Shown piece by piece: positions 7,100-33,241 of a DNA stretch of 64,000 bases (its first letter is position 1; each line of letters opens with the position of its first letter). Origin of the DNA: Verrucomicrobiales bacterium. GTDB lineage: Bacteria; Verrucomicrobiota; Verrucomicrobiia; Verrucomicrobiales; Verrucomicrobiaceae. Under the pieces are notes generated by a model. It saw nothing but the letters and a program-made list of their open reading frames with translations. It did no database searches and was not told the origin of the DNA. The position numbers were made by a program, and so were the translations under genes. The DNA lies in contig JBBRNC010000008.1 of the NCBI GenBank assembly GCA_038230495.1, forward strand, positions 30,378-94,377. The letters are read 5' to 3'.

Positions 7100-7192
7100 C
7101 GCAAATCCGTAGCAGCCGACGTGAGGAGGCTCAAACTTAATCGCCTAGCACTTTACAACACCGCTGAAAACAGAGCCTCCTTACGTCGGCTG

Positions 7193-9099: not shown

Positions 9100-9157
9100 T
9101 TCCTCAAAGAGGGACGCCCATCTTGCGAGGCTGAAGGCGCTCGCCTAATATAATGTC

Positions 9158-9889
9158 ATGGCCTACATCTTCGCACTCTTCGTCATCACGCTGGTCTCGC
9201 TCCTCATCATTCGCGTGGGCACGACAGCGCTGATGATGACAGGCCTGAGCTGGGACACGGCCAGCTTTCAGTCTTACTCCGCATTCTTCGGCGTGGGCTT
9301 CACGACGAAGGAGGCAGAATTAGTAATGAATCATCCTGTGCGGCGGCGGATCATCCGCGATCTCATTGTTGCAGGAAACGTCGGCCTGACCTCTGGCTTG
9401 GTGACGTTGATCGTTACCGTGTTGCAGGAAAAAACCTGGCTCAATCCGTTAACGGCCATCGGAGCAATCATTGGCACCATCATTATTCTGCTGCTGCTTT
9501 TCAAAATCGGCATCTTCCAACGGTTGCTCGATCATGTAATCCGAAGGGCGCTTGAGAAAGCTGGCATCGTGCGTGCGCTCGACTACGAATTACTGCTGCG
9601 CATCCAGTCGGGTTTCTGCGTATCCGAAATTGAAATCATGGCCGATACTTGTCTTTGCGGGAAGATGCTCAAAGAAACACGACCTGCTGAATGGGGCGTA
9701 TTAATCATGGCCATTTCACGGGATGGAATAGTGATGGATGGCATCCCTGGACCGAAGACCGTGGTGCAAGCAGGCGATGTGATTACCGCTTACGGTCACG
9801 AAACTGAATTAAAAAAACTGCTATCTAAGGAACTTCCACAGGACATCGATGTGCCACTGGCATATCAAAAAGATAGTCCAGTATCTTAG
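9158..9889 (+). CDS. Membrane protein with C-terminal TrkA-C (RCK_C) domain
   Basis: N-terminal TM helices; C-terminal EIEIMADTC...GDVITAYGHETELKKL resembles RCK_C; interrupts the men cluster on the opposite strand. Confidence 0.5.
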   Translation: MAYIFALFVITLVSLLIIRVGTTALMMTGLSWDTASFQSYSAFFGVGFTTKEAELVMNHPVRRRIIRDLIVAGNVGLTSGLVTLIVTVLQEKTWLNPLTAIGAIIGTIIILLLLFKIGIFQRLLDHVIRRALEKAGIVRALDYELLLRIQSGFCVSEIEIMADTCLCGKMLKETRPAEWGVLIMAISRDGIVMDGIPGPKTVVQAGDVITAYGHETELKKLLSKELPQDIDVPLAYQKDSPVS

Positions 9890-9908
9890 CCTGACTTTCG
9901 CTTCATCA

Positions 9909-10721
9909 CTACGGCACTCGCGGAAACTTCGAGAAATCCGGCTCGCGCTTCTCGATGAAGGCGTTCTTCCCCTCCTTAGCTTCCTCGCTCATATAATAGA
10001 GCAGCGTGGCATTCCCTGCGAGATCGAGCAGACCCATCTGGCCGTCACAATCGGCATTGAGCGCGGACTTGAGACAGCGCAGCGCGAGTGGCGAATGCTT
10101 CATGATTTCTCGCGCCCATTTTAACGTCTCGATTTCGAGATCGGCCAGCGGCACCACCGTGTTCACCAAGCCCATGTCGAGCGCCTGTTGCGCATTGTAT
10201 TGGCGGCAGAGATACCAAATTTCCCGCGCCTTTTTCTGTCCGACAATGCGCGCGAGATAGCTGCTGCCTAACCCGCCGTCGAATGAACCGACCTTCGGAC
10301 CTGTTTGACCAAATCGCGCGTTGTCCGCGGCTATCGTGAGATCACAGACAACGTGCAGCACATGCCCGCCGCCGATGGCGTAACCGGCTACCATCGCGAT
10401 AACGGGCTTGGGAATGCTGCGGATTTTCTTTTGCAGATCGAGCACGTTCAAGCGCGGCACGCCGTCGCTGCCGACATAGCCCGCGTGGCCGCGCACTTTC
10501 TGATCGCCGCCGGAGCAGAACGCGTCCGGCCCTTCGCCCGTGAGAATGATGACGCCGACCTTCGGGTCTTCATGTGCGATGTCGAAGGCCTCCAGCATTT
10601 CCTTTACGGTGAGCGGGCGGAAGGCGTTGCGCACCTTCGGGCGATTGATGGTGATCTTAGCGATGCCATCGCTGGTCTTCTCCAGTTTGATGTCGGTGAA
10701 TTCTTTAATGGGTTTCCACAT
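9909..10721 (-). CDS. menB: 1,4-dihydroxy-2-naphthoyl-CoA synthase (crotonase family)
   Basis: [42 protein letters not shown] blocks diagnostic of MenB; 270 aa. Confidence 0.9.
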
Positions 10722-10727
10722 GATGCA

Positions 10728-11918
10728 TTACTCGTAGCGGATTTCTTCAAACACGCCACCACCAAGCAATCGCTCACCATCATAAATCGCACAAATTTGT
10801 CCGGGCGTTAGGGCGCGTTGCGGCTCGTCAAAAATAAGCTCGGCGCACAGTTCGGTGCCGCGCTCGAACGGTTTATATTCCGCAGCGGCAGCGGGACTGC
10901 GATAGCGCGGCATAGCATCGAGCCTGCGCGGTTGCGTCAAGTCGGGGCCAGTGGTGGAGATGTTGTTGATCGTGCAACGACGCGCCCAGAGCAGCGGCGT
11001 GTCGGGACGTTCAATGGCAATGACGAGGGCATTCGACTCCATGCGTTTGGCGACAACGACATAGGCTTGCTTATAAAGATTGCTTGCCACGCCAAGTCCC
11101 TTGCGCTGGCCTAGCGTGTAGAGATGCAGGCCGCGATGTTCGCCGAGAACCTTGCCTGAAAGATCAACAATGGGGCCGGGCTTGTCCGGCACGAAGGTGC
11201 GCAGGAAATCTTCCATCTTCACTTCACCGATGAAGCAGATGCCTTGGCTATCTTTCTTCTCGGCTGTCTTCAATCCAAACTCTCTCGCGAGTTCACGCAG
11301 CTCCGGCTTCAACAGATGCCCTATGGGAAAGCGCGCGATCTCCACCTGCTCGGGCCGCATCATGGCGAGAAAGTATGTCTGGTCTTTGTTGGGATCAGCG
11401 CCCTTAAGAACTTCTGAATACGAACATTGAACATTGAACATTGAACTCTGAACATTGAGACTCGCAGCAACGCGTTCCGATTTCGGATTTGCCTCATTCA
11501 ATGTTGAATGTTCGACGTTCAATGTTCGATGTTCGACGCGCCTCGCATAGTGTCCGGTCGCGATGGCATCGAAGCCGTTGTCCCGCGCCCATTCCCAGAG
11601 CACGCCGAATTTCATCTCGCGATTGCACATCACATCAGGATTGGGCGTGATGCCTTGCGTGTAGCCTTCGAGAAGATATTTCACGACTTTCTCGCGATAC
11701 TCCTTCATCAGGTTCACGACGCGGAACTCAATACCGAGCTTGTCCGCGACAGCTCGTGCATCCTCGATGTCCTCTTGCCACGGGCAATGGCCAATGATGT
11801 TCTCTTCATTGATCCAGTTCTTCATGTAAGCACCAGACACGTCATATCCCTCGCGGACCAACAGCGCGGCGGCCACGCTGCTGTCCACGCCTCCGGACAT
11901 GGCGACGAGAATTTTCAT
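10728..11918 (-). CDS. mnmA: tRNA 2-thiouridine(34) synthase MnmA, carrying an in-frame ~34-aa insertion
   Basis: [19 protein letters not shown]-loop, DQSYFL-like block (NKDQTYFL), GICFIGE block; 396 aa versus about 360 typical. Confidence 0.9.
11421..11535. repeat. Imperfect ~115-bp palindromic element of tandem GAACATT heptamers, inside mnmA
   Basis: Left arm CGAACATTGAACATTGAACATTGAACTCTGAACATTGAG and right arm CTCATTCAATGTTGAATGTTCGACGTTCAATGTTCGATGTTCG are about 85% reverse-complementary; central TCCGATTTCGGA hairpin. Confidence 0.8.
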
Positions 11919-13372: not shown

Positions 13373-13468
13373 CCGGGCGTTAATTTCCGCGAATCGGCTA
13401 GCCGGAGTTGACACCACGGGTGCGGCATGTATTTTCGCCGCCCTCAATTCACCCCCAAGTCGCAAGCC

Positions 13469-13972
13469 ATGGCCCACACGCAAGTCATCCTCAAGGAAAA
13501 AATCATCAACCTCGGCGCTGAAGGCGACCTAGTGAAAGTTCGTGCCGGATTCGCCCGCAATTTCCTCCTGCCCCAAGGCAAGGCTTTTGCAGCCACGAAG
13601 AGCAATCTCACCCAACTCGAGAGCCTCAAGAAAATTCGCGCCGAACGCGAAACGAAAGAACTCGAAGAAGCGGAAAAAACAGCCGTCAAACTCCGCCGCC
13701 TCAAGCTCAAGCTCACCCTCGCCACTGGTCAGGGAGGCAAAGCTTTCGGCTCCATCACCGCGATGGACATTCAAAAAGCCGTGGCCGAGAGCAGCGCGAA
13801 AGTCGATCTCGAGAAGCATCAAATCGAACTCGACAAGCCAATCAAGAGCACTGGCAGCTTCGATATCCCAGTCAAACTGCACAACGATATCGAGTGCGTC
13901 ATCAAGCTCGTTGTTTCTGCCGCTGATGGCAAAAACGCGGGCGGCGAAAGCTCCGAAGATTCCGAAGGCTAA
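13469..13972 (+). CDS. rplI: 50S ribosomal protein L9
   Basis: MAHTQVILKEKIINLGAEGDLVKVRAGFARNFLLPQGKA is the canonical L9 N-domain; ORF track start 13427 trimmed to the internal Met. Confidence 0.85.
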   Translation: MAHTQVILKEKIINLGAEGDLVKVRAGFARNFLLPQGKAFAATKSNLTQLESLKKIRAERETKELEEAEKTAVKLRRLKLKLTLATGQGGKAFGSITAMDIQKAVAESSAKVDLEKHQIELDKPIKSTGSFDIPVKLHNDIECVIKLVVSAADGKNAGGESSEDSEG

Positions 13973-14010
13973 TTCAGTCCGGCTCGTTAATCATCGAGCA
14001 CTAATCTTTA

Positions 14011-14041
14011 AAACGACGGTTTCATCACCGTCGTTTTTTTG
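14011..14041 (+). terminator. Rho-independent terminator after rplI
   Basis: ACGACGGT-TTCATC-ACCGTCGT stem-loop followed by TTTTTTTT. Confidence 0.7.
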
Positions 14042-14103
14042 TGCCTATATTCGAAGCGCCTAGCCGTATTGAGTTATTCACATCAATTCACATACGATGA
14101 TGG

Positions 14104-15624
14104 TTGCTTCATGCGCGACACGCGGCAAATTTTATTCCCTTTATTATGTCGGAACCTTCTAACATCGCCCCTTTCGACCCCAACGCAGTAGCCGCCCCCA
14201 GCGCCCCTGCTTTGCAAAAGGCCATCGCGCCCAGTCCGCGCGGAACAGAGTCCATGCGGGCCATGCCTTACAGCGATGACGCAGAGAAGGGCGTGCTCTC
14301 CTGCTTCCTGCAGAACCCCGTGGATGTGCTGGACGATGCACAGGTGAATCTTTCCGCAGAAGCTTTTTATCATCCGGGTAACCGCCTCATTTTCGAGGAG
14401 CTGATGGGCTTCAATAACCAACTAGGTAAGGCACTCGACCTCGTCACTTTCTCTCAGCATCTCATCGACAAAAATCTCATGGACAAGATCGGCGGGCCTT
14501 CCACGCTTGCCGAATTGCTGAACTTCGTCCCCACACCCGCGCACTATCCTTACTATCGCGGCATTCTACGGGACAAGCATCTCCTGCGTCGCGTCATCGG
14601 CGCCTGCACCGAGGGCATCCAGAGTGCCTACGAGTATCAAGAGGATGTGCCCGGTTTGCTCGACCGCGTAGAGCAACGCATCCTCGCCGTGCGCGAGGAA
14701 TCGCAGACGCGGGACAACATCAAGCCGCTCAAAGACCACGTCTCCGAGGCCATCGACGCCATGCAGGAGATGATCAAGAATCCCGGCATGTTGCGCGGGC
14801 TTTCCACCGGCTACGGCCTGCTCGACAAGCTGACCAACGGCCTGCAAAAAAGCGAAATGTTCGTCATTGCCGCAAGGCCTTCCATGGGCAAGACCTCGCT
14901 GGCCATGAACATGGTCGAGCACATCGCCCTTGTGCAGAAAAAGCCCGTCGCCGTTTTCAGCCTGGAAATGAGCGCTTCCATGCTCGTGCAGCGTCTCATT
15001 GTCGCCCGCGCAGGTGTCAATATGGGGAAAATCCACGGCGGCCTTCTCGCTCGCGAAGAAATGCGCGCCGTCATGAAAGCCTGCACCGAGCTTCAAGACG
15101 CGAACATTTTTATCGACGACACACCGGGTCTCGAAATCCTCGAACTACGGGCCAAGGCGCGACGATTGAAAAAGCAATACGGCATTGAACTCGTCGCCAT
15201 CGATTACCTCCAGCTCCTCACCTCCGGCAGCAAACGCGGCAAGGAAAACCGCCAAATCGAGATCGCAGAAATCTCCGCCGGCATCAAGGGTCTCGCCAAA
15301 GAACTGAACATCCCCGTGCTCGTGCTCGCCCAACTTAACCGTCAGGTGGAGCAGAATAAGAATCAAAAGCCCATGCTCAGTCACCTGCGTGAATCAGGTT
15401 CCATCGAGCAAGATGCTGACGTGGTCGGCCTGCTCACCCGTTCCGACTACGCGGGAGCCAAACAGGAAGACGCCGACGGCGCAGAAGATGAAAGCAAGAA
15501 AGGTGAGTCCGAACTCATCATCGCCAAGAATCGTAACGGCCCCACCGACAGCGTTCCACTCCGCTTCAAAGGCGAACTCATGCGCTTCACCGAGCGCGAG
15601 TTCGAGCGCGGATCAGATCATTGA
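14104..15624 (+). CDS. dnaB: Replicative DNA helicase DnaB
   Basis: Walker A ARPSMGKTS, LSTGYGLLD, DYLQLL, SGSIEQDADVV blocks; follows rplI as usual; exact start uncertain (possibly 14146). Confidence 0.9.
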   Translation: MLHARHAANFIPFIMSEPSNIAPFDPNAVAAPSAPALQKAIAPSPRGTESMRAMPYSDDAEKGVLSCFLQNPVDVLDDAQVNLSAEAFYHPGNRLIFEELMGFNNQLGKALDLVTFSQHLIDKNLMDKIGGPSTLAELLNFVPTPAHYPYYRGILRDKHLLRRVIGACTEGIQSAYEYQEDVPGLLDRVEQRILAVREESQTRDNIKPLKDHVSEAIDAMQEMIKNPGMLRGLSTGYGLLDKLTNGLQKSEMFVIAARPSMGKTSLAMNMVEHIALVQKKPVAVFSLEMSASMLVQRLIVARAGVNMGKIHGGLLAREEMRAVMKACTELQDANIFIDDTPGLEILELRAKARRLKKQYGIELVAIDYLQLLTSGSKRGKENRQIEIAEISAGIKGLAKELNIPVLVLAQLNRQVEQNKNQKPMLSHLRESGSIEQDADVVGLLTRSDYAGAKQEDADGAEDESKKGESELIIAKNRNGPTDSVPLRFKGELMRFTEREFERGSDH

Positions 15625-15679: not shown

Positions 15680-18556
15680 TCACGCCGCAATCCCACGAAT
15701 ATACGTCGCCACATAATCCACCACGCGATCGAACACGCGTTTCTTGCTGGGTCCTCGCTCCATAACCCTCAATGGTATTAGGATGAGTTCGGCAATGTCC
15801 GGGTCCGGCAACGGCTCTTTGCCGGTATAGACATAGCGGTCGATGACCTTTTTCAATTTGTCGGCATCAAGATGTTCTTCTTCGACAAGCCGATCGAAAG
15901 CTGCCAGGCGTTCTTTTTCCCAAAATGCTTCAAAAGTCTCGGGAATCTCCGCCGCGCTACCTGCCGCTGGTAAATTCGTTTCGATAAACTTCTCAATCAG
16001 CTCTTTCTTGCTCCGCAGTTCAATGTCGCTGGCTACGCTGTCGAGAATGAGCTTTCTGATCGCAGGTGCTTCGGTTGCATCCGCTCCGTAGAGTTTCGCC
16101 AACAGCGTCAGGATATACTGCACGTTGATTACGTCGCGGTGGATCAGTTCCAGTTCAAAGTCCACGTCGTTGAGGATGGATGCCTTGTCCTTCGTGTTGT
16201 CAGTTTTGACCTTGTCGTAGAGGTCCAGATAAGCGCTGCGATAGTCGGCGAAACGCTGCCCAGTCATCGCGAGGTCGTCGTTTTGGAACTCGGAAAACGA
16301 TTCGAGGATGTTCCGCAGACGCATCAGCTCGCGGAAAATCTTCACGAACAGCATCTCCGCCTCCTCGTCCTTCAGTTCCTTCACGCTCGCCACCGTGGGT
16401 GTGAGTTTGCGCAGTTCTTCAACAACCTCGTTGAACCGCTTCACATACTCCTCATAGGGCGGGACAAAGATTTCCTCCTTCGCCTTCACATTGGAGAAGA
16501 GCGCGATGGCCTCATCCGTGCGCTTCTTGAGGTTGCGGAAGACAACGATGTTCCCCTGACTCTTTACCTCGTTGAGGATGCGGTTTGTTCGAGAGTAAGC
16601 CTGCACCAGCCCGTGGAAGCGCAGATTCTTGTCCACGTAGAGCGTGTTCAGCGTCTTGCTGTCGAAGCCGGTGAGAAACATGTTCACCACCAGCAGCAGG
16701 TCCACCTTCCGTTCCTTCACCTTCTTGGCGATGTCCTGATAGTAGTTATAAAAGCTCTGCGTGTCCTTGGTGGAGTAGTTCGTGGCGAACATTCCGTTGT
16801 AGTCGCCGATGAAGCGCTCCAGCTTGTCGCGGGTGTGCGGGTTTCCGCCGTCACCGCCGATGATCTCGCTGTCTCCGTCCAGGATACCGTCCGCGTCTTT
16901 GTCCTCCTCATTGCTGGTGTAGCTGAAGATCGTCGCCACGCGCAGCTTGTGCTTTCCTTCGGTCTTCCGCTTGGCGAACAGCTCATAGTATTTGATCAGC
17001 ACATCCACGTTGCTCACGCACATCATCGCGGTGAACTCCTTGTTCCGCGTCTTCACCGCGTGATGTTCAATGATGTAGTCCGTGATCTTCTCCAGCCGCG
17101 CCGGGGACTCCATCAACTCGCGCGTGTCGATCCCTTCCACCTCAATGTCCACTTCTGTAGCCGTGCCGGGCTTCTTCTTGTAACGGCCCACATACTCCAC
17201 GGCAAACTTCAGCACATTCTCGTCCTTGATCGCATCCGTGATCACATAGCTGTGCAGCTTCTGGTGGAAGAGGTCTTTCGTCGTGTGCTTCTTCCCGTCC
17301 TTAGTCGCTGCGTTGTCGGCGAAGATCGGCGTGCCGGTGAAGCCGAACATCTGGTGATTGCGGAAGAAGCCGGTGATCCGCTTATGGGTGTCGCCGAACT
17401 GGCTGCGGTGGCACTCATCGAAGATGAAAATGATCCTCTCGTCTTGGAGCTTCGCCATCTTCTCCAGATACTGCGGCTTGCTGATCGCCGCGTTCAGCTT
17501 TTGCAGCGTGGTAACGATCAGCTTGGTGTCGTCGGTGAACTGCTGCACCAGCTTGTGTGTGTTGTTCGTGCTGTCCACGCTCCCTTTGCTGAAGCCGTTG
17601 AACTCTTTGATCGTCTGATAATCTAAATCCTTGCGATCCACCACGAAGACGACTTTATAAATGCCGGGCAGGCCGGTGAGAATCTGCGCCGCCTTGAAGC
17701 TCGTCAACGTCTTGCCGCTGCCAGTTGTGTGCCAGACATAGCCATTGGCGTCTGTCTCCGGTGGGAACTTCACTCGCTCCACGATGCGCACCACCGCGTA
17801 GTATTGATATGGGCGCAGCACCATCAGGATTTTGTCCGTCGCATTGAGCACGATGTATTTCCCGATCATCGTGCCGAGGTGCTCGCGATTGAGGAAGGCG
17901 GTGGCAAAGGGCGTCAGTTCACGGATCGTCTTGTTGTCCTCAGCCGCCCAGTAAAAGGTTTGCTTGAAGGATTGCCGCCGCGCGTTGGCGTAATACTTTG
18001 TGTTCACCCCATTGGAAATCACGAAGAGCTGGACGTAGTGAAACAAGCCTTGCCCGCTCCAGAAGCTGTGTTTCTGGTAACGCTGAATCTGGTTGAACGC
18101 TTCCTTCATCTCCAGCCCGCGCCGCTTTAGTTCGATCTGCACCAGCGGCATGCCATTGACGAGGATCGTCACGTCGTAGCGATTCTTGTAGCTGCCCTCC
18201 ATGGCTACTTGCTGCGTCACCTGATAGCGATTCCGCAGCGGATTCACGGAGTCGAAGAACTCCAGATACGTCACCGTCCCGTCATCGCGGTTCAGCTTCA
18301 TCCGGTCGCGCAGGATTTTCGCCTTCTCGAAGACACCCGCGCTTTTCGTGAGGTGATGCATCACCTGTGTGAACTCGCCTGCCGTCAGCGCCACGCCGTT
18401 GAATGCCTCTAATTGCGCCTTCAGGTTCGCCAGCATCGAAGCCTCGTCCGTCACCGCCGCCTTCGCGTAGCCCATGCCCACGAGCTGCGCGACGAGCGCA
18501 TCCTCCAGCACCTGCTCGGGTTGGGTCATCGGAACAATGTTGAGGGAGGTGCTCAC
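15680..18556 (-). CDS. hsdR: Type I restriction enzyme R subunit (HsdR), SF2 helicase/endonuclease
   Basis: HTTGSGKTLTSF Walker A, DECHRSQ DEAD-box II, 958 aa, typical HsdR length; 4-bp overlap with the upstream gene. Confidence 0.9.
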   Translation of the reverse strand: MSTSLNIVPMTQPEQVLEDALVAQLVGMGYAKAAVTDEASMLANLKAQLEAFNGVALTAGEFTQVMHHLTKSAGVFEKAKILRDRMKLNRDDGTVTYLEFFDSVNPLRNRYQVTQQVAMEGSYKNRYDVTILVNGMPLVQIELKRRGLEMKEAFNQIQRYQKHSFWSGQGLFHYVQLFVISNGVNTKYYANARRQSFKQTFYWAAEDNKTIRELTPFATAFLNREHLGTMIGKYIVLNATDKILMVLRPYQYYAVVRIVERVKFPPETDANGYVWHTTGSGKTLTSFKAAQILTGLPGIYKVVFVVDRKDLDYQTIKEFNGFSKGSVDSTNNTHKLVQQFTDDTKLIVTTLQKLNAAISKPQYLEKMAKLQDERIIFIFDECHRSQFGDTHKRITGFFRNHQMFGFTGTPIFADNAATKDGKKHTTKDLFHQKLHSYVITDAIKDENVLKFAVEYVGRYKKKPGTATEVDIEVEGIDTRELMESPARLEKITDYIIEHHAVKTRNKEFTAMMCVSNVDVLIKYYELFAKRKTEGKHKLRVATIFSYTSNEEDKDADGILDGDSEIIGGDGGNPHTRDKLERFIGDYNGMFATNYSTKDTQSFYNYYQDIAKKVKERKVDLLLVVNMFLTGFDSKTLNTLYVDKNLRFHGLVQAYSRTNRILNEVKSQGNIVVFRNLKKRTDEAIALFSNVKAKEEIFVPPYEEYVKRFNEVVEELRKLTPTVASVKELKDEEAEMLFVKIFRELMRLRNILESFSEFQNDDLAMTGQRFADYRSAYLDLYDKVKTDNTKDKASILNDVDFELELIHRDVINVQYILTLLAKLYGADATEAPAIRKLILDSVASDIELRSKKELIEKFIETNLPAAGSAAEIPETFEAFWEKERLAAFDRLVEEEHLDADKLKKVIDRYVYTGKEPLPDPDIAELILIPLRVMERGPSKKRVFDRVVDYVATYIRGIAA

Positions 18557-19263
18557 GCCTTCGTGTAGGCTTGTTTTTCGTGGTTGGGAGTGTCTGGGAA
18601 AGCCCTTCGGAGACGCTTGTCTTTACACAGCTTCGATAGAAAATCCTGCCGGAGTGTTCTCTCTCCTCGGTCCATGATTTTTGCCAGAGAGCTAATCGTC
18701 ACAAAATGTCCTTCACATACCTGAACAATCAGGTCCTCCAGTTCCTTCCGGTCGATTTTTCCTTTTGTTCTTGGGAGAGTCGCCATCGCCTCCAGTTTCT
18801 CGCGGAAATCTTGAGTCAGTTTATCCACGGAATCCACAAAAGGCAGTCGAAACTGTTCGGCGACCAGCCGCCCGACTTCATCGCGTTTGAGAACCTGTTT
18901 GCCCTCGATAATTGTGGAGCTAGGCCCGATAATTGTAGAGCTGCCCGTCAAAATTGTAGAGCTCGGATCGATAATGATAGTGCTGCCGGGACCAAAAATG
19001 TCATCAGGGTTGGCGGTATCGAAAAGCACTTTCAGAATCTTGTCCGGCTTTTCAATCGAGTTGAAGGCGAACTTCCCCTCCTTCTCCTTCACCCCCAGCA
19101 GCACGATCCCACCATGCATATTCGCCATGGCTGAATAGCTTCTCCAAAAGTCCTGAGGCAATTCTCCTTTTCCATCACGTCCAGCCGCCAACTTGCATTC
19201 GAGTTCATAGTACTCGCGCAGTTGCTCTAGGTCAGCCGTGTTTTGTAGTGGAAACGAGATCAT
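18553..19263 (-). CDS. AlbA_2-like (Schlafen-type) DNA-binding domain protein with C-terminal HTH; contains internal 7-aa tandem repeats
   Basis: N-terminal EQLREYYELECK...IVLLGVKEKEGKF resembles PF04326-type putative DNA-binding domain; PSSTII x3-4 repeats; sits between hsdS and hsdR. Confidence 0.5.
   Translation of the reverse strand: MISFPLQNTADLEQLREYYELECKLAAGRDGKGELPQDFWRSYSAMANMHGGIVLLGVKEKEGKFAFNSIEKPDKILKVLFDTANPDDIFGPGSTIIIDPSSTILTGSSTIIGPSSTIIEGKQVLKRDEVGRLVAEQFRLPFVDSVDKLTQDFREKLEAMATLPRTKGKIDRKELEDLIVQVCEGHFVTISSLAKIMDRGERTLRQDFLSKLCKDKRLRRAFPDTPNHEKQAYTKA
18906..18990. repeat. Four tandem imperfect ~21-bp repeats (CGATAATTGTAGAGCT-like) inside the AlbA_2-like gene
   Basis: cgataattgtggagctaggcc / cgataattgtagagctgcccgt / caaaattgtagagctcggat / cgataatgatagtgctgccggg; encode [GD]PSSTII repeats on the minus strand. 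Confidence 0.75.
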
Positions 19264-19284
19264 GGCGGTTGAACAGAGGCAAGG

Positions 19285-20460
19285 TTAAACAAACATTTGC
19301 TGAAGCAACCCGCGTTTGAAGGTTTGGGTGTGGGTGATCTGCGCGGCCACGGTTTCTATCTTGCGGTCGAGCGCTGTGAGGAAGTTGGCGATCTTGGTTT
19401 GTTCTGCTTGGCAAGGAAGCCCCATTTCCAAACCAGAGATGTCTTCTTTTGTGAATCCTTGAATCGACGTCCCTTGGTTGAAAGTTAGAAGTTTGTTCAG
19501 TGAAAACTTCAAGAAGTAAGCAACAAAGTATGGATTAGCATTCGAAGGAATCAGGCTGGTGAAATCCTGACTCGTGCAAAGGTCCGAAGGAGCGACGACT
19601 GCCTTTCCGACCCCGACCCTTGAAACAATCAGAACGCTGCCTTTCGGAACCAGTTTAGTGGCTGATTCTGCAATGGCCTCGCTGGTGATGAAGCGATTAA
19701 TTCTGATTTGTGTGATGCTCTCTTGCACAAGGTCGGAGCTGGAAACCCAAGGAATACTTCCGCTCCAATATTTTTTCTCGGATTTGCTGGGTGTTCCTCC
19801 GCCAATGAATTTGCCAAGCGTTCCGAAGGTAGTCTCCTCCCAATCGGGGAATTCATTGCCGTGGTCGTCTTGGAAGCGGAGGGCTTGGGTAAAGAGTTGT
19901 TGCATCACGCCTTTCTTGTAAGCCTCCAGCAGAGCTTTCTTTTGGCTCAGTTGCGCCAGCCGCCCATCCACCGCCGTCAAGAAATTCGCAATTTTCCGCT
20001 GCTCGGGTAGGAAGGGGGAACTAATGCTGTAACCTCCGATCTGTGGTCCAGTGAGTTGAGGAACGCCCGTTGATTCAATGAAAAATGGTATTCTGCTTAT
20101 CGCACTCTCGAAAAAGTTGACGTCACCAGCAGCCCGAGGCCGGAGCACGAGCAGCCTTACTATCGGAACGAATCGCTCGTGACGAGCGTGGGGCGTCCCA
20201 AGGTTTCCTCTTCCCGAAACCGTAACACAGCCTCCTTCCTCTTTGTAGTAACTCGCATAGCCGTAGAACCCCTTGTCAGTCTCCGCGTTTGCAAAGACTG
20301 GATATGGAAAATCGTCTGTCTTGGTTTTAGACAGCCTCTCTTTGTCGATGTCGCCTCCAGCTCCAATACGGAATACTTCACTGAGTTCATTAGTTTCCCA
20401 GCTCTCCGTAAATTCGGAAAACCTCAATTTGGGCACGCTCATGGTCTGCTCCATCTTCAT
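19285..20460 (-). CDS. hsdS: Type I restriction-modification specificity subunit (HsdS), two target-recognition domains
   Basis: Two TRD halves separated and followed by conserved coiled regions (LTALDRKIE..., FLTAVDGRLAQL); 391 aa; lower GC. Confidence 0.85.
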   Translation of the reverse strand: MKMEQTMSVPKLRFSEFTESWETNELSEVFRIGAGGDIDKERLSKTKTDDFPYPVFANAETDKGFYGYASYYKEEGGCVTVSGRGNLGTPHARHERFVPIVRLLVLRPRAAGDVNFFESAISRIPFFIESTGVPQLTGPQIGGYSISSPFLPEQRKIANFLTAVDGRLAQLSQKKALLEAYKKGVMQQLFTQALRFQDDHGNEFPDWEETTFGTLGKFIGGGTPSKSEKKYWSGSIPWVSSSDLVQESITQIRINRFITSEAIAESATKLVPKGSVLIVSRVGVGKAVVAPSDLCTSQDFTSLIPSNANPYFVAYFLKFSLNKLLTFNQGTSIQGFTKEDISGLEMGLPCQAEQTKIANFLTALDRKIETVAAQITHTQTFKRGLLQQMFV

Positions 20461-21515
20461 TCCGTGTCCTCCTCTTTGGCCTCAAATCTGGCCCTTGAAA
20501 GCTGGATGGCTTCGTGGAGTTTTTGTTGCAGGAGTTGACGGTCGGGCAGACCGGTGAGGTATTCGGCGACGTGGATGCCGGTGCCGCTGAGTTCCAGCAG
20601 CTCGATCTGCTCAGTCTTTTTTCCGGCGCAGAGGATGAGGCCGAGGGGCGGTTCCTCGCCGGGCTGTTGTTCATGCTTAGCCAGCCAGCGGAGGTAGAGT
20701 TCCATCTGGCCTTTATACTCGGCTTTGAAGTCGCCGAGCTTGAGGTCGATGGCGATGAGGCGCTTGAGCCGCCGGTGATAAAAAAGGAGGTCGATGTAGA
20801 AATCATCCGAGTCGATCTGGATGCGGAATTGTCGGGCCTGAAAGGTGAAGCCGTCTCCCATTTCGAGGAGGAAGTTTTCCAACTCACGCAGGATGGCGTC
20901 CTCCAAGTCCTTTTCCAGATAGCGGTCTTTCAGCCCCAGGAAATCGAGGATGTAGGGATCGCGGAAAACGAGTGAGGGGGTGAGTTTGTCCTCTTCTCTC
21001 AAGGCGGAGAGTTCGGCCTTGGCGACTTCCGCTGGCTGCTTGGAGATGGCGGTGCGCTCGAAAAGCATGGAGTCGATCTTCGAGCGCAAGGTGCGGACGC
21101 TCCAGCGCTCAATGCGGCACATCTCGGCGTAAAAGTCCCGCTGGAGGTCGTCTTTGAGGGGTATAATTTCTTTGAAATGGGACCATCCCAATTGTCGCGA
21201 CAGTGTAGCAACAATTTCACCCTCCGAGAACACTTGGTTAAACCTGACCATCCGGGTGAGGGCGGAGTAGTTGTAACCGCTCCCAAACTCTGCCGTCAAA
21301 GTTTGCGACAGTGTAGCAAGAATCTCCTTCCCATACCCAGCCCGCTTGTTTCCAAGGACTTCAGTCTGGATGCGCTTGCCGATGCGCCAGTAGAGAAGCG
21401 TCAACGCCGCGTTGGCAACTCCGGCCAGCGCGGTTCGAGTCTGCTGGATCATGCTCCGCACATCGGAGACGACACCGGCTGGGCTTTCGATGATGGTGAA
21501 GTCGGCGTCCTTCAT
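20457..21515 (-). CDS. DUF1016/YhcG-like PDDEXK nuclease-domain protein
   Basis: N-terminal LLYWRIGKRIQTEVL...GYGKEILATLSQTL signature of the YhcG family; 352 aa; inserted between hsdM and hsdS as is common for this family. Confidence 0.75.
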   Translation of the reverse strand: MKDADFTIIESPAGVVSDVRSMIQQTRTALAGVANAALTLLYWRIGKRIQTEVLGNKRAGYGKEILATLSQTLTAEFGSGYNYSALTRMVRFNQVFSEGEIVATLSRQLGWSHFKEIIPLKDDLQRDFYAEMCRIERWSVRTLRSKIDSMLFERTAISKQPAEVAKAELSALREEDKLTPSLVFRDPYILDFLGLKDRYLEKDLEDAILRELENFLLEMGDGFTFQARQFRIQIDSDDFYIDLLFYHRRLKRLIAIDLKLGDFKAEYKGQMELYLRWLAKHEQQPGEEPPLGLILCAGKKTEQIELLELSGTGIHVAEYLTGLPDRQLLQQKLHEAIQLSRARFEAKEEDTE

Positions 21516-21518
21516 GAC

Positions 21519-23087
21519 TCAAAAAGGTGGTTTGATTCCCAACTCTGCACAAAAGGCTGCGATGGTAGCATTCGTCCCGCTCATTTCCTGCTCCAGCGTG
21601 GCGAGTTGGGCGGAGACGGCGGCGAGGTCGATGGATTCCTCCGCGTCGAAGGTATCGACGTAGCGCGGGATGTTCAGGTTGTAGTCGTTGGCCTCGACCT
21701 CGCTGCGCTCGGCGACTTTGCTGAATTTCTCGATGCTCTCGCGCTTCCGGTAGGTGCTGACGATGCGCTCTATGTCCTCGGGGCGGAGTTGGTTTTGATT
21801 GCCGACTTTTTCAAAGTGCTGGCTGGCGTCGATGAAGAGGATGTCGTCGGGATGCTCGCGCTGCTTTTTCAGCACGAGGATGCAGGTGGGGATGCCGGTG
21901 CCGTAGAAGATGTTGGCCGGGAGGCCGATGACCGCGTCGAGGTAGTTGCAATCCTCGATGAGATACTTGCGGATGTGGCCTTCTGCCGCGCCGCGAAACA
22001 AGACGCCGTGCGGGAGGACGCAGGCCATGGTGGCACCGCTATCGAGGTGGTGGACCATGTGCTGGACGAAGGCGAAGTCGGCCTTGGTTTTAGGAGCCAG
22101 TTTGCCATAGGCGCTGAAGCGGTCGTCGCTCTCATGGATGGCGCTGGCGGACCAGTTGGCGGAGAAGGGCGGATTGGCGACGATGGCCTCGAAGCGCAAA
22201 TCGGCGTGCTCGGGCGCGGGATGCTCCAGGGTGTCCTCGTTCTTCAGGTCGAAGCGCTGGTAGTGGACACCGTGCAGAATCATGTTCATGCGGGCGAGGT
22301 TGTAGGTCGTGGGGTTCATCTCCTGCCCGTAGAAGTGGCCCACGTCCTCAACCTCCTTCGCCACGCGCAGCAGCAACGAGCCGGAGCCGCAGGTGGGATC
22401 ATAGACGCTTTTTAGCTTGGTCTTTCCGGTGGTGACGATCTTCGCTAAAATGGTGCTGACCTCCTGCGGCGTGTAGAACTCGCCGGCCTTCTTCCCCGCC
22501 CCGCTGGCGAACTGGCCGATGAGGTATTCGTAGGCATCGCCCAGCACGTCGGCCTCGGTATCGGCGAGGCGGAAGTCGATGCCATCGAGGTGGACGAGGA
22601 CTTTGGCGATGAGTTCGTTTTTCTGGTTCTCGGTCTTGCCGAGCTTCGACGAGCCGAGGTCGAGGTCCTCGAACAAGCCCTCGAAGTCGTCCTCACTGTC
22701 ATGGCCCATGGTGCTGGCCTCGATGTGCTTGAGGATGGCGGTGAGGTCTTCCAAGATGAAATTGTCCGTCTTCTGCGCACCCTTTTCGGCGACCTTGTGG
22801 AAGAGTTCGGACGGCTTCAGAAAATAGCCCAGCCGCCCGATGCATTCCTCCTGAATGGCTACGAGCATTTCCTTCCCCTTCTTGGTGGACTCGTCGATGT
22901 CGGCGAATTTGATCCCGTCATTCTTCAGGATGTCATCCGCGAAGAGGTGCATCCGCTCGGAGAGGTATTTGTAAAAGATGAAACCGAGGATGTAGTCGCG
23001 AAACTCATCAGCCCCCATCTTCCCGCGCAGGGTGTTGGCGATGTTCCAGAGCTGGGATTGGAGCGTCTTTTTGTGGTCGTCGGACAT
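21519..23087 (-). CDS. hsdM: Type I restriction-modification DNA methyltransferase subunit (HsdM), N6-adenine
   Basis: N-terminal HsdM_N helix (LWNIANTLRG), SAM motif DPTCGSGSLL, catalytic NPPF; 522 aa. Confidence 0.9.
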   Translation of the reverse strand: MSDDHKKTLQSQLWNIANTLRGKMGADEFRDYILGFIFYKYLSERMHLFADDILKNDGIKFADIDESTKKGKEMLVAIQEECIGRLGYFLKPSELFHKVAEKGAQKTDNFILEDLTAILKHIEASTMGHDSEDDFEGLFEDLDLGSSKLGKTENQKNELIAKVLVHLDGIDFRLADTEADVLGDAYEYLIGQFASGAGKKAGEFYTPQEVSTILAKIVTTGKTKLKSVYDPTCGSGSLLLRVAKEVEDVGHFYGQEMNPTTYNLARMNMILHGVHYQRFDLKNEDTLEHPAPEHADLRFEAIVANPPFSANWSASAIHESDDRFSAYGKLAPKTKADFAFVQHMVHHLDSGATMACVLPHGVLFRGAAEGHIRKYLIEDCNYLDAVIGLPANIFYGTGIPTCILVLKKQREHPDDILFIDASQHFEKVGNQNQLRPEDIERIVSTYRKRESIEKFSKVAERSEVEANDYNLNIPRYVDTFDAEESIDLAAVSAQLATLEQEMSGTNATIAAFCAELGIKPPF

Positions 23088-23250
23088 GAAGTATTTTTAA
23101 GTGTGGCTCGGCATTTATATCTAAGACAAGTCGCAGAGAAGAAAGAACTACACGTCAGCGAACAGACAAGTCCAGAATTTTAGACCACACGGTATAAATT
23201 TTACCTTGGAATATGTTGCTCCGCGGGCAGATGATCTTCATTAACGCAAA

Positions 23251-23943
23251 TCAATCGCGGCAGGCTTTCACGACAAAATCCAAAAGCGCAGCACTGAGCG
23301 GCTGGACACGCAGATCAATGGGTGCCAGCAGACCGTCGTTCATCAGAATGATGTTGCCACGATGCGTGTCAGAAATCACCACGTTCCTTTCAGGATCAAA
23401 GTAAGCCACTTCCCCGCTGACTGTGAAGCGCTTCCAGCCGTTACCGGTGAAAAAGTCGTTGATCTGAGCCAGCGTTGCTGGTTCTCCTTCGATGGCCTGC
23501 TGCTGGATCACCAGCCTCAGTCTGCTATCCGCTTCCCACACTCCGAGAAAGCTCACCGTGTCGCCAAACATCTCGTTGTGCAGTTGCCATCGTTCAAGAT
23601 AGGCGATGGGCGATGACCGCTCATCTTCGTCCTGCCGGTAGAGCACCTGCATCCCGAAAAAATCCGGCCATGTGATCTTCAAATAAGTGTTCTTATCCGG
23701 TTGAAACCAGACCTGATGCTCGTTGCCCTCCTCATCGGGCTTCCGGCTCAGTTCTGTGGGCGGGCCTGATAGGAGGAAGAATCCTCTCTCACACGCGTAG
23801 TCCCTGAAGATTCTGACCTCTTCGAGGTAATGGGTAGAACCGCCCTGAACATGCGAAGCTGCTTCACAGCGGCTTCGTAGCTCTTCAACGTGTGCTTCGA
23901 GCGGGATTCCCGCAATTGATCGGCCAGACTCATTGGAGGACAT
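23251..23943 (-). CDS. Hypothetical protein with HipA-C-like kinase-fold catalytic motifs
   Basis: ISDTHRGNIILMNDG (D-x-H-x-x-N catalytic-loop-like) followed by LLAPIDL (resembles the HipA LAPxYD activation segment); 230 aa, no P-loop seen. Confidence 0.4.
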   Translation of the reverse strand: MSSNESGRSIAGIPLEAHVEELRSRCEAASHVQGGSTHYLEEVRIFRDYACERGFFLLSGPPTELSRKPDEEGNEHQVWFQPDKNTYLKITWPDFFGMQVLYRQDEDERSSPIAYLERWQLHNEMFGDTVSFLGVWEADSRLRLVIQQQAIEGEPATLAQINDFFTGNGWKRFTVSGEVAYFDPERNVVISDTHRGNIILMNDGLLAPIDLRVQPLSAALLDFVVKACRD

Positions 23944-24690
23944 TGGTTTGGAATTCGTTAAAGTTCAAGTGCCATCATTCAGACAAACATCAACAGAACT
24001 TAGCCCTGCTTCGCAAAGCCGAAGTATTGTTGGTTAAAAATCGTTGCTCAGCATAAATGCAACCCACTGTCCATGTTCCTACTGAACAGGTTATTGCCAC
24101 TTGCTCACAAGTTATTCACAACGCGCCAAGCCTTGATTTTAGGGGCTTCGGGCTATGCCACGAACGCTTTGCCCTGATTTCATAAGGCTTGCGGAATGAA
24201 GCCTTGATGGAACTGCATTTCCCACGCCGTGGAACGCCTGCTTTTGTGCTGTGGAACGAAAACGTCACATTGGCGAATAACTGCCTATCCCCATAAACAG
24301 GCCCTTCCAGCGCTTTTTATGGAATAGACGCGAAATCTCCGCTCCTCTACTACTGACGTAAAACGTTGCCGTTCAGTGTTTTACTGTTTCACTTTTCCGA
24401 TGTGACATTCGTAGCACACAACAACAAATTTGAACCAATTCCTCATTCATGCCGACATCCATTGCTCGTCGCCAGTGTCCCTGTCTAACAAATCCGTAAC
24501 CTGCCCGATTATCCCGCCAAATAATAATTCTCCAATTTTTTCGGCACGCATCGTAGCACTATACTTCTTCCACTGCCCAGTGCGTCAGCATCCAAATGGC
24601 TAAAAGGTTAACAAATAGGCAAGTTATTCACAGCCCGCGCATTTACCCTGTAAACGCACGATCAGCCACTGCCCCTTACCTTGTCCGATC

Positions 24691-25653
24691 CTATTTCCCC
24701 CACTGAATCGCACCGAGGAGATCGCCGAGATCGCGGGCGGCTTTGGCCACGCGTTCTTCACCCCAGACACGGAATTTCTCCTTGGTGTCAGGCTTGAGAT
24801 TCAGATAGAGCGTCCAATAACTCCCGGTGCGCGGGAAGCGTTTTCCGAACTTGAGTTCCGCATAGATCATGCGCGAAGTCTCGGCAGAATCCATGGCCCA
24901 CTGAGGCGGACATTCGCGGCAGGGGCCGTTGTTGGCGGGTTTGAGCTCCGCCATTTTCTTGCGGATGATGACAGCGAGCTTGACCTCAGTCTCTGCGGTC
25001 ATGGCCACGACGTTTTCGTCCCAATACCGGTGCAGTGGAAGTTCCTTGGTGAGCAGGAGCTTGTTGCCGCCGCTGTCTTTGGCCTCGGGATTTTTCGCCG
25101 CCTCGTCGGGACTAGTGATGAGGGTCGCGCGGCCATCGTCATCGAATTTGAAAAATCCCGCCGCCACATGCAGTGGCTGATGCACGTCGCCGCCCAGATG
25201 AACGAGCCAGCGCAAGGCATCGCGCTTGCTCATGAACTCTGATTTGCCTTCGAGAACATCGATGCACTTCCCGATAGTGGCCACAATGTCGTTATCTGCG
25301 ATGAAGCGTTTGTCTTGGGCGTATGTTTTGATGTCGAGCGGCAGGTCCAGATAGTGCCACGAGGAATTGTCCGGGTGGGCTTCTGTGAAGGCTTTGCCTT
25401 CGGGAGTTTCGGAAAACCTGCCAGAGCGCGATTTCATTTTCGAGTGCCGGATGTCATCGGGCCAGATGGATGCGTCCTCAATGCTTTCGCCTGCGAGGAT
25501 TTCCTTCACCTTAGCGGCTGCGACAGGATTCGTTTTCTGAAGTTGCTCCAAAGCCAGTGTGGCAATGGTGCGGTGGCCCAGCGGCCCCCAAGCAAATGCA
25601 GGTGCGCTCATCAACAAGGCCAGAGCGGTGATCAGAAGGGCGGTTAGTTTCAT
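24691..25653 (-). CDS. S1/P1-family secreted zinc nuclease
   Basis: Signal peptide then mature N-terminus WGPLGHRT (Trp1/His ligands), conserved His/Asp clusters; ORF track start 25692 trimmed to MKLTALL. Confidence 0.75.
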   Translation of the reverse strand: MKLTALLITALALLMSAPAFAWGPLGHRTIATLALEQLQKTNPVAAAKVKEILAGESIEDASIWPDDIRHSKMKSRSGRFSETPEGKAFTEAHPDNSSWHYLDLPLDIKTYAQDKRFIADNDIVATIGKCIDVLEGKSEFMSKRDALRWLVHLGGDVHQPLHVAAGFFKFDDDGRATLITSPDEAAKNPEAKDSGGNKLLLTKELPLHRYWDENVVAMTAETEVKLAVIIRKKMAELKPANNGPCRECPPQWAMDSAETSRMIYAELKFGKRFPRTGSYWTLYLNLKPDTKEKFRVWGEERVAKAARDLGDLLGAIQWGK

Positions 25654-25698
25654 AGGTGAAGAATGATGGATTATATACGATTTGTCCCGCAAATTATT

Positions 25699-28743: not shown

Positions 28744-29523
28744 ATGCTTGCCAAGGCTCCAATCTCCACTCAAATCTCAATCCTTATGTTCGTTCGCACA
28801 TTGTTAGTCCTATCAGTCGCCGTTACCATGCCGTTCCAGTTGAATGCGCAGAACGCATCCGCAAAAAAAGGCTGGGGAGGTGATCCGGCCTCGGCCACCA
28901 AACTTAAGGCGCACTGGCATTACAATTGGTGGACAAACGGCAAATCAAGTCACGGCTTGGAATTTGTCCCGATGGTAAAAGGAAAAAAACAAGTGAACGA
29001 CACGGTGCTCAAAGCTATCAAGAGCAATGGCGCGAAAGTCATCCTCTGCTTGAACGAACCGGAACGCGCCTCGCAAGGCGACACCACTGTTGAAGAAGCC
29101 CTCAATCTCTGGCCAAAGCTTATGAAGACTGGCCTGCGCCTCGGAAGTCCCGCGCCCTCATCCGATGCTGCTGGTATGGCTTGGCTGGATACTTTTATGC
29201 AGGGTGTCGAGAAGAAGAAACTGCGAGTCGATTTCATCGCCCTACACTGGTATCGCAGTTCCGATCCCGACAAGTTTGAGGAATTTTTAAAAGAGATTCA
29301 CGACAAATATAAGCGCCCCATTTGGGTTACAGAGTTCAATTCCCAATACTCCAAAGGAGACCGTGACCAATTTGCCGCTCAGGCCTTCAAAATTTGTGAC
29401 CGCCTCGATTTCGTTGAACGCTACAGTTACTTCACCACCAAACCCGGCGAACCCGGCAGCTTGTGGAAAGATGGCGGACACAAGGAACTCACTCCGCTCG
29501 GTAAGGACTACACATCCCATTGA
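28744..29523 (+). CDS. Secreted glycoside hydrolase, GH128-like (Glyco_hydro_cc)
   Basis: Signal peptide; conserved LCLNEPE (catalytic Glu) and VTEFN (nucleophile Glu) blocks typical of the GH128/Glyco_hydro_cc fold. Confidence 0.65.
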   Translation: MLAKAPISTQISILMFVRTLLVLSVAVTMPFQLNAQNASAKKGWGGDPASATKLKAHWHYNWWTNGKSSHGLEFVPMVKGKKQVNDTVLKAIKSNGAKVILCLNEPERASQGDTTVEEALNLWPKLMKTGLRLGSPAPSSDAAGMAWLDTFMQGVEKKKLRVDFIALHWYRSSDPDKFEEFLKEIHDKYKRPIWVTEFNSQYSKGDRDQFAAQAFKICDRLDFVERYSYFTTKPGEPGSLWKDGGHKELTPLGKDYTSH

Positions 29524-29549
29524 GTGCTGGTTGTAACAGTGAAGATGAA

Positions 29550-32653: not shown

Positions 32654-33241
32654 AATGGTGATTCTATTTTTACAGATTGATTCCGCTGATGTTGGAACGC
32701 AGCCGCACAATCCCCAGCGAAATGGGATGGCGGAGTTTTTGATTGTCGCGGCAAAACTTGACCGCGACTCTGACTCTAAGGAGTCAGATGATAAGTGACC
32801 GGTGCACACCTAGGGTGGCCCGTCGCGTCGTCCTGTGTCTGTATGCATGATAGTAGCGCCTCGCGTTAATGATCCGCGGTCTGCGCTGCGCATGGCACTC
32901 GCTTCCCGTGAATCGTTGTCTCACGGGGCGAACATGACCCCCACCACTCGGTGGGGCAGAGGATCGCCCTCCCAATACACCTGCGAGGTTAGCTGTCGGA
33001 CTAGGTCTTGGAAGTGACCCCAAAGTATGTTACCACACTTCGTGCGCCCCTTCCCAGCGGCTTTTGGAAGGCTGCTGGGAGTTCGGTTCCCCCGTGTCAG
33101 CCCCCAGGAAGGAAGGCCGACTTCGGCTGCGTCTTCTTTCAAAGACACGATGAAACTAATAGCAAGAATCAATGGGAAATCAAATGGAATCGGATAGTGC
33201 AATTATCGATTCTGCACTCGTATGAGTTATCGCGGGGTTAT

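Follow-up and report, generated by a model that had tools for sequence, protein, structure and literature searches.

Organization of the locus

The DNA analysed here, a stretch of 64,000 nucleotides (nt; the window) from a Verrucomicrobiales bacterium (contig JBBRNC010000008.1), holds at positions 15680-23087 a type I restriction-modification (R-M) operon in which two additional genes are interleaved with hsdM, hsdS and hsdR. One of these encodes a nuclease of the DUF1016/YhcG family. The other, an open reading frame (ORF) of 236 codons designated ORF236, is the in-frame internal-deletion remnant of a much larger Schlafen-ATPase gene and most likely a disarmed relic. All five genes lie on the minus strand. 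The first is hsdM (21519-23087), encoding the N6-adenine DNA methyltransferase subunit of 522 amino acids (aa). It is followed by the gene for the DUF1016/YhcG-family PD-(D/E)XK nuclease (20457-21515; 352 aa), by hsdS (19285-20460; 391 aa), encoding a specificity subunit with two target-recognition domains (TRDs), by ORF236 (18553-19263), which derives from a gene of the Schlafen(AlbA_2)-GHKL ATPase-winged helix-turn-helix (wHTH) type, and by hsdR (15680-18556; 958 aa), encoding a restriction/translocase subunit like that of EcoR124I (type IC).

The gene order, common orientation and tight packing that had been reported in a sequence-only reading of this DNA are reproduced by the ORF list, which gives the exact span 15680-23087, and the reported spacing is equally accurate. 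Read from the sequence, the hsdM stop is followed after 3 nt by the DUF1016 ATG; the DUF1016 and hsdS genes share a 4-bp ATGA overlap, with a GGAGG 8 nt upstream; 21 nt separate the hsdS stop from the ORF236 ATG; and ORF236 and hsdR overlap by 4 bp (GTGA) if hsdR starts at GTG. This GTG, at 18556, is a mechanical call, and the ATG at codon 10, at 18529 and 23 nt past the ORF236 stop, is equally possible, since this is where the closest HsdR starts to align. The spacing between ORF236 and hsdR is tight with either start.

Upstream of hsdM lies a non-coding leader of 163 nt (23088-23250, minus strand), the sole sizeable minus-strand gap between hsdM and the kinase-like gene that precedes it, and presumably the promoter region. 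A consensus scan detected no sigma-70 site in this leader and no terminator-like site on the minus strand within 15680-23087, and nothing in the promoter and terminator scan rose above shuffle expectation. This result is compatible with a single transcript and proves nothing.

The lower GC content noted earlier for hsdS is real (0.50, against 0.59 in hsdM and 0.55 in hsdR), and ORF236 is just as low (0.50). GC content at third codon positions (GC3) is 0.56 in both hsdS and ORF236, compared with 0.84 in hsdM and 0.78 in hsdR. Two long antisense ORFs, one of 495 aa inside hsdR (16139-17626, plus strand) and one of 412 aa inside hsdM (21177-22415, plus strand), are most likely by-products of the high GC3 of these two genes and not genes themselves.

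The type IC restriction-modification core

That the operon encodes a type I R-M system is upheld by domain matches far beyond chance for all three Hsd proteins. HsdM matches the Pfam domains N6_Mtase (7.5e-109) and HsdM_N (1.5e-20) and the TIGR00497 hsdM model (445.8 bits against a cutoff of 242.75; 2e-133), and it carries methyltransferase motif I as DPTCGSG (230) and motif IV as NPPF (305). HsdS matches Methylase_S in two stretches (5.2e-40), giving the two TRDs, and the PADLOC model Specificity_I over residues 3-391 (4e-83). In HsdR, the domains HSDR_N, SWI2_SNF2/ResIII, T1R_D3-like and EcoR124_C are present (1e-38 to 1e-68), the TIGR00348 model scores 491.7 bits (3.7e-147), and phmmer aligns residues 12-758 with the EcoR124I/II HsdR chains (2w00, 4be7) at E ~1e-182; the motor motifs GSGKT (279) and DECH (380) are intact.

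The operon thus shares with EcoR124I and EcoR124II (type IC) the canonical hsdM/hsdS/hsdR set with its catalytic motifs and the EcoR124_C domain, and differs from them in the two extra genes interleaved with the core and in its Verrucomicrobiota host, the closest relatives coming from Akkermansiaceae MAGs (metagenome-assembled genomes). Because the catalytic motifs are all present, the core R-M enzyme is probably functional. HsdM and HsdS would form an M2S1 methyltransferase marking a bipartite target, and HsdR would join it to give an ATP-driven translocating endonuclease (R2M2S1) that cuts unmodified DNA. Neither a phase-variable hsdS (shufflon, inverted repeats) nor a tandem-repeat switch was found.

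A DUF1016 nuclease gene between hsdM and hsdS

The protein encoded between hsdM and hsdS had been assigned to the DUF1016/YhcG family of PD-(D/E)XK nucleases, and this assignment stands. Both Pfam domains, DUF1016_N (PF17761; 8.4e-44) and YhcG_C (PF06250; 6.5e-47), score well above their gathering cutoffs (149.4 and 159.7 bits against 32.8 and 32.5), and the protein corresponds to the PADLOC candidate PDC-S02 (model PDLC04807, 5.3e-129). From residue 235 it carries the PD-(D/E)XK motif in a D...D-L-K form, "DSDDFYIDLLFYHRRLKRLIAIDLK" (IDLLFY...AIDLK). The motif described for the family is E-D-E(I/L/V)K (PMC1189080); the window copy has D-L-K in the last element. Nothing sets it apart from the family (COG4804; PDC-S02), with which it shares both Pfam domains and the nuclease motif. 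A sequence search found no solved structure for the protein.

An association of DUF1016 with type I systems, called known but unexplained in the sequence-only reading, is indeed on record, both in the PADLOC candidate PDC-S02 and in the literature. DUF1016 within type I loci was already reported in 2023, with the annotation enriched beside type I genes (Milman et al. 2023, PMC9881135), and one case of DUF1016 between type I core genes has been described (PMC1189080). The closest plasmid homologues of the window protein (57-63% identity) are stand-alone genes, found next to an RHS/H-NS region, next to imuABC, or directly after an integrase within a Shedu/AAA-helicase island. In the nearest R-M relatives of the window operon, L002 and L081 (L numbers denote loci compared with the window), hsdM is followed directly by hsdS, without DUF1016, and a DUF1016 gene fills the same slot in the distant type I operons L055 and L100. 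Since its closest homologues stand alone, the nearest R-M relatives lack it and unrelated operons have the slot filled, the DUF1016 gene is most likely an autonomous single-gene module nested in the operon. Its product would be an intact PD-(D/E)XK nuclease with an alpha-helical N-domain, acting by itself as an auxiliary nuclease-type defence that borrows the transcription of the operon and is not an obligate R-M subunit. What the window offers here is an intact copy of PDC-S02, with a candidate defence function only.

ORF236, a deletion remnant of a Schlafen-ATPase gene

The second additional gene had been read as encoding an AlbA_2-like DNA-binding protein. The SLFN_AlbA_2 domain (PF04326) of ORF236 falls below its Pfam gathering score (22.6 against 25.3 bits), and the match covers residues 17-65 and positions 1-45 of the 118 in the profile, well short of a full domain. 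ORF236 is instead what an in-frame deletion has left of a protein of ~657 aa with the architecture Schlafen(AlbA_2)-GHKL ATPase-wHTH. In a search of 5.8 billion proteins, most matches were confined to one part of ORF236, the N-terminal third or the C-terminal half, and a few short proteins matched both. The full-length orthologue in L002 (657 aa) contains SLFN_AlbA_2 at 43.9 bits over profile positions 1-117 of 118, plus HATPase_c_4. A tblastn search with this orthologue against the window returned two segments in the same frame, q1-85 (73%) and q503-657 (61%), and ~417 codons are therefore missing from ORF236.

By alignment with full-length relatives, the deletion junction falls at codons 85-86, AAC CCT, encoding Asn85-Pro86 (19006-19011, minus strand). 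In those relatives the flanks of the junction read A-N-N-P on the N side ("...GCG AAC AAC CCC GGC" in L002) and T-N-P-D-D on the C side ("...ACA AAT CCA GAT GAT" in L080), which is consistent with a deletion of the microhomology type, by slippage from one short sequence to a similar one that has the same codon phase.

Of the Schlafen domain, which spans residues 17-147 in the orthologue, ORF236 keeps 17-85 only. Regular-expression searches of the retained N-terminal fragment (residues 1-85; 19009-19263, minus strand) found E17-x4-E22-x-K24 (E17YYELECK24), the Schlafen box S44AMAN48, GGIVLLGV and an acidic residue in GVKE, and the fragment thus contains both the E(x)4(D/E)xK nuclease motif and the SAFAN Schlafen box as these have been defined (bioRxiv 10.64898/2026.05.29.728809). 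The fragment is followed by a low-complexity repeat linker (GPGSTIIIDPSSTILTGSSTIIGPSSTIIEG; 18904-19008, minus strand) with equivalent repeats in homologues; a 21-nt direct repeat lies within it at 18906-18947. The linker repeats are serine-rich in the window and in L002, L006, L018, L022 and L055, and the unit differs by lineage (SSTII/SSTIS, SSPNL, SSSLL, SSPDL), as if homogenised within each gene. The remainder is the retained C-terminal domain (residues ~121-236; 18556-18903, minus strand), which is conserved across 118 related loci and is predicted to form a winged helix ending in AFPDTPNHEKQAYTKA.

In an AlphaFold 2 (AF2) model of ORF236 built from an alignment of 40 sequences, the predicted local distance difference test score (pLDDT) is 47-59 for residues 1-85, 26-34 for the linker and 80-86 for residues ~125-220. 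The best Foldseek matches of the model were MarR-family and Z-alpha winged helices, all of them non-significant (E >0.09), the Z-alpha match having a root-mean-square deviation of 1.6 A over 63 columns. A homologue gave a weak match to Fic-like_C. As modelled, the ORF236 protein would consist of a winged helix and, attached to it, an N-terminal stub that is disordered or only half folded. Its predicted product lacks the GHKL ATPase, the first winged helix and about half of the Schlafen domain. After a ~417-codon in-frame deletion, probably of the microhomology type, in a gene with the order Schlafen nuclease-GHKL ATPase-wHTH-linker-wHTH, what is left could at most supply a small winged-helix protein. 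It is almost certainly unable to act as a latent RNase back-up, and ORF236 is most likely a disarmed relic.

A gene of this structure might also arise in silico, if the assembly had collapsed a repeat or joined the wrong sequences across the repetitive linker. The deletion does end beside a low-complexity repeat linker, and related sequences often come from metagenome-assembled genomes (MAGs) with frameshifts. However, a Logan assembly of the same strain (L001, run SRR19962015) matches 9279 nt including the whole of ORF236 with 2 mismatches, and since this independent assembly reproduces the gene, ORF236 is not an assembly artefact. The junction itself also lies within unique sequence and not in the repeat, and the sequence on its N side is non-repetitive. 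We accordingly give an assembly or annotation error hardly any credence.

The full-length Schlafen-GHKL ATPase family

Loci encoding the C-terminal domain were gathered from one genome per species (78) and from a metagenome scan (40), 118 in total. Among them, the domain is mostly the end of an ORF of 650-700 aa, here called gene X. In two full-length representatives, Pfam identifies SLFN_AlbA_2 (profile 1-117) and HATPase_c_4, and the alignment places a winged-helix region, the repeat linker and the C-terminal winged-helix domain after them. Of the 54 full-length genome copies, 53 carry the nuclease motif, 51 the Schlafen box and 41-46 the GHKL N- and G-boxes.

The sequence-only reading took the position of such a gene between hsdS and hsdR to be less common, and this does not hold for the family. 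In at least 30 of the 54 full-length copies, hsdR follows downstream in the same orientation, at a distance of no more than 30 nt in 13 of them, and at least 23 copies have hsdM or hsdS upstream; these counts are lower bounds, because Hsd neighbours were detected only with the Hsd proteins of the window and many contigs are short. The closest R-M relatives have the order hsdM-hsdS-X(657 aa)-hsdR, without DUF1016, and in the close clade of L080, L081 and L083 a full-length X immediately precedes hsdR. The complete five-gene order of the window, with a full-length X, is also found in two distant loci, L055 and L100. A plasmid, NZ_AP022626.1, the source of the full-length relative WP_202819455.1, carries an annotated example in which subunit M, subunit S, an "RNA-binding domain-containing protein" and subunit R follow one another, and two 2026 papers describe Schlafen-ATPase proteins that are associated with R-M systems.

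In the first of these, a CRISPR-associated Schlafen was shown to cleave tRNAs, and Schlafen homologues with ATPase and DNA-binding domains (cluster 7) were found to be tightly associated with R-M systems, their activation mechanisms being undefined (PMC13462974, 2026). In the second, the Schlafen+GHKL supradomain was named "Schlatpase", a fusion to prokaryotic Argonaute (pAgo) was reported to undergo ATP-driven tetramerisation and to cleave tRNA, and Schlatpase modules were described in type I operons either as stand-alone genes or as HsdS fusions (bioRxiv 10.64898/2026.05.29.728809). Full-length X homologues resemble Schlatpase and cluster 7 proteins in combining SLFN_AlbA_2 with HATPase_c_4, in their conserved motifs and in being a gene of their own within type I operons. 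The X subfamily differs from them in having an extra repeat linker and a second, C-terminal winged helix (with the AFPDTPNHEKQAY end). ORF236 itself is no Schlatpase, as the entire GHKL domain is missing: it has no HATPase_c_4 match in Pfam and no GHKL boxes in a motif search.

In EcoprrI, the slot between hsdS and hsdR is that of prrC. PrrC, embedded in this type IC locus, is a latent anticodon nuclease that is held latent by the R-M enzyme and released when a T4 anti-restriction peptide inhibits the restriction enzyme (PMC1484252, PMC12707154). The window operon and EcoprrI, both of type IC, share the presence of an accessory gene between hsdS and hsdR, and full-length X, like PrrC with its ABC-type NTPase and anticodon nuclease, pairs an NTPase with an RNase-type domain. 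There is, however, no sequence relationship between the two. X consists of Schlafen/AlbA_2, GHKL ATPase and winged helices, and no match to an ABC-type NTPase or PrrC anticodon-nuclease domain was found in ORF236 (Pfam, NCBIfam, PADLOC) or in the full-length X relatives (Pfam). The nuclease is N-terminal in X and C-terminal in PrrC, and the window copy lacks the NTPase and half of the nuclease. Analogy with PrrC, and with those prokaryotic Schlafens that have been characterised, which are tRNases licensed by a fused sensor or ATPase, suggests that full-length X would most likely back up restriction as a latent RNase. A candidate for the part that couples it to the R-M enzyme is the C-terminal winged helix.

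Recurrent decay of gene X

The window is not the only place where X is damaged; damaged copies are present in roughly a quarter of the genome loci. Frameshifts are found in L003, L011, L065 and L119, and 5' truncations in L012, L014, L024, L029, L033, L058, L106 and others. In-frame internal deletions that keep both ends of the gene occur in the window, L041, L047/L107, one L013 copy and L075, and the only out-of-frame internal deletion is that of L064. The retained parts are q1-63 and q397-653 in L041, and q1-60 and q298-662 in L047/L107, while the L075 allele combines its in-frame internal deletion with a later frameshift. Two of these loci have further peculiarities. In L013 (Thiopseudomonas; 6765-11390), two X copies stand in tandem before hsdR, an internally deleted one of 535 aa and a full one of 691 aa. 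In L075 (Thiocapsa; 6591-8183), an ORF of 330 aa matches DUF1016 as well as the ends of the Schlafen gene, and is apparently a deletion that fuses both passengers.

These alleles bear on whether ORF236 might be a functional "mini" protein, that is, a winged-helix protein with an N-terminal Schlafen fragment, produced by an in-frame disarming that has been selected repeatedly. Such a protein could act on the operon as a regulator, associate with the R-M complex, or poison or titrate oligomers of full-length Schlafen-ATPase proteins. The frame of ORF236 is intact, its C-terminal domain is predicted to fold (pLDDT 80-86), and short forms with yet other junctions exist in the databases (P0002, P0006, P0008, P0009, P0010). 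In addition, the independent internal deletions of X are in frame in 5 of 6 cases where 1/3 would be expected (binomial p ~0.02). We do not rely on this excess: the sample is tiny, all junctions are different, L075 was also frameshifted later, the in-frame state of the short forms in the database is an effect of ascertainment, and microhomology in the same codon phase yields an in-frame product automatically. Since the junctions of the short alleles all differ, these alleles are separate recent events and not members of a conserved short family. The ORF236 junction occurs in no second sequence, P0001 being a singleton cluster among the 5.8 billion proteins searched, and AF2 models the N-terminal part of ORF236 with low confidence. 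The apparent retention of the C-terminal domain is biased as well, because the loci were found through that domain. Taken together, we consider a functional mini protein unlikely.

We regard as slightly less likely again a more elaborate account, in which the Schlafen-GHKL-wHTH RNase in the PrrC slot guards restriction and is repeatedly disarmed because the guard is costly or toxic, with ORF236 as the selected product, be it a regulator, an adaptor binding the R-M enzyme or a dominant-negative subunit. If this were true, such deletions would cut out the ATPase and nuclease core and spare the N-terminal start and the C-terminal winged helix. Translational coupling to hsdR was considered as a cause of in-frame deletion and rejected as a general one, since the other in-frame alleles are not closely followed by hsdR: there is a 1.5-kb gap to hsdR in L047 and no hsdR in reach in L041 and L075, and the deleted copy in L013 is followed by the second X copy. 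In L002, which has the closest full-length orthologue, X lies 170 nt from hsdR.

Mosaic history of the operon

The nearest R-M system, that of the Akkermansiaceae MAG locus L002, is 89.5% identical to the window operon in HsdM and 81.8% in HsdR, and sits at a different chromosomal site. From this difference in context it follows that the R-M system is mobile on an evolutionary scale; there are no obvious mobility genes. The HsdS proteins are far less alike. BLASTP aligns only their C-terminal halves (46%), and the N-terminal third is ~27% identical in a codon alignment, a pattern typical of TRD swapping. Synonymous divergence (dS) from L002 is 0.64 for hsdM and 0.99 for hsdR, ~1.4 for the C-terminal half of hsdS, and saturated for the N-terminal third of hsdS and for ORF236. 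The GC3 of ORF236 (0.56) is also well below that of its L002 orthologue (0.78). Judged by the dS pattern, the lower GC3 of ORF236 and the absence of DUF1016 from L002, the DUF1016-hsdS-ORF236 block has a history different from that of hsdM and hsdR on either side of it. The mosaic fits the modular exchange that is known for type I specificity regions. Recombination breakpoints inside hsdM or hsdR were sought and rejected, as a sliding identity window showed no sharp boundary; identity to L002 declines gradually toward the 3' ends of both genes.

The five genes could form one integrated defence system, with both DUF1016 and the AlbA_2-like protein as obligate Hsd partners. Tight spacing on one strand with no internal terminator-like site found, the recurrence of the same five-gene order in the distant loci L055 and L100, and the statistical enrichment of the DUF1016 annotation beside type I genes (PMC9881135) would all agree with this. 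Nevertheless, the closest R-M relatives (HsdM 89%, HsdR 82%) do without DUF1016, the nearest homologues of DUF1016 are stand-alone genes, as are several full-length homologues of X, and X has been gutted in the window while the Hsd genes are intact. The divergence of hsdS and X from L002, far beyond that of hsdM and hsdR (saturated dS against 0.64 and 0.99), indicates modular exchange and likewise counts against integration. We therefore consider an integrated five-gene system very improbable, and the earlier description of an elaborated system beyond the canonical three genes overstates how closely the two passengers are tied to the R-M genes.

The reading we favour, and hold to be quite probable, is that of a chromosomal type IC (EcoR124I-like) R-M operon, convergent with dnaB, that nests two independent single-gene defence modules, its copy of X being a relic. 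Several points weigh against it. ORF236 is still an open frame, uninterrupted by stops or frameshifts over its 236 codons, and it retains the acidic nuclease residues, the Schlafen box and a C-terminal domain that is predicted to fold; a residual or new function is thus possible. Compared with its L002 orthologue, ORF236 has a low nominal dN/dS (~0.07-0.09), but with dS saturated this value is silent on the period after the deletion. As a test of constraint on ORF236 it was set aside as uninformative, there being also no other sequence with the same junction. The functional status of the core and of DUF1016 would follow from the integrity of their motifs only. The full-length family also occurs away from R-M genes, for example in enterobacterial loci, which weakens an obligatory coupling to R-M. 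Finally, the role of X as a tRNase guard would be carried over from other Schlafen architectures and from PrrC, no R-M-embedded Schlafen-GHKL protein being known that has been experimentally characterised.

All parts of the locus belong to already-described kinds, and the window itself holds little that would surprise a specialist. Mildly new are the X subfamily, with a repeat linker and an extra winged helix at the C-terminus, the in-frame decay that X has undergone repeatedly, and its PrrC-like position in type IC operons. As an example, the locus illustrates how type I operons may act as landing pads for single-gene defence modules, the second passenger being a Schlafen-ATPase gene caught mid-decay. 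The set of 118 loci, with its annotated plasmid examples and several independently truncated alleles, bears on whether R-M-embedded Schlafen-ATPase proteins are PrrC-like tRNase guards.

Chromosomal surroundings

On the hsdR side, the operon is convergent with rplI-dnaB (13427-15624, plus strand). On the hsdM side, 163 nt upstream of hsdM, lies a gene (23251-23943, minus strand) for a stand-alone Kinase-PolyVal protein of 230 aa (Pfam 1.2e-14). Kinase-PolyVal is a kinase domain otherwise described in polyvalent proteins. This neighbour was considered and set aside: it has no PADLOC or NCBIfam match and no plasmid homologue. Its gene is found in L001, from the same strain, and in none of the screened R-M loci L002-L119.

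Next to it is a 747-nt stretch (23944-24690) with no ORF of at least 60 aa on either strand and no Rfam match, which has the lowest GC content in the neighbourhood (0.47) and could be the edge of an inserted defence islet. It is bordered by a gene for an S1/P1-family nuclease (24691-25692, minus strand; 1.1e-30), apparently secreted, with a hydrophobic N-terminal leader, beyond which lies an ABC-F ATPase gene. The hallmarks of a mobile-element origin were looked for and rejected, as the 64-kb window contains no tRNA gene and the neighbouring ORFs examined include no integrase.

Farther along the window, an adjacent pair of paralogous Glyco_hydro_cc genes (1.5e-46 and 4.6e-45; 28744-30329, plus strand) is followed by an Ada-like AraC/methyltransferase gene (30405-31241), an ordinary chromosomal context. 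A cyclic di-AMP riboswitch (Rfam RF00379; 46.2 bits, gathering score 38) at 32964-33138 on the minus strand lies upstream of an ORF of 486 aa (31349-32809, minus strand) with a weak SPFH/Band 7 match.

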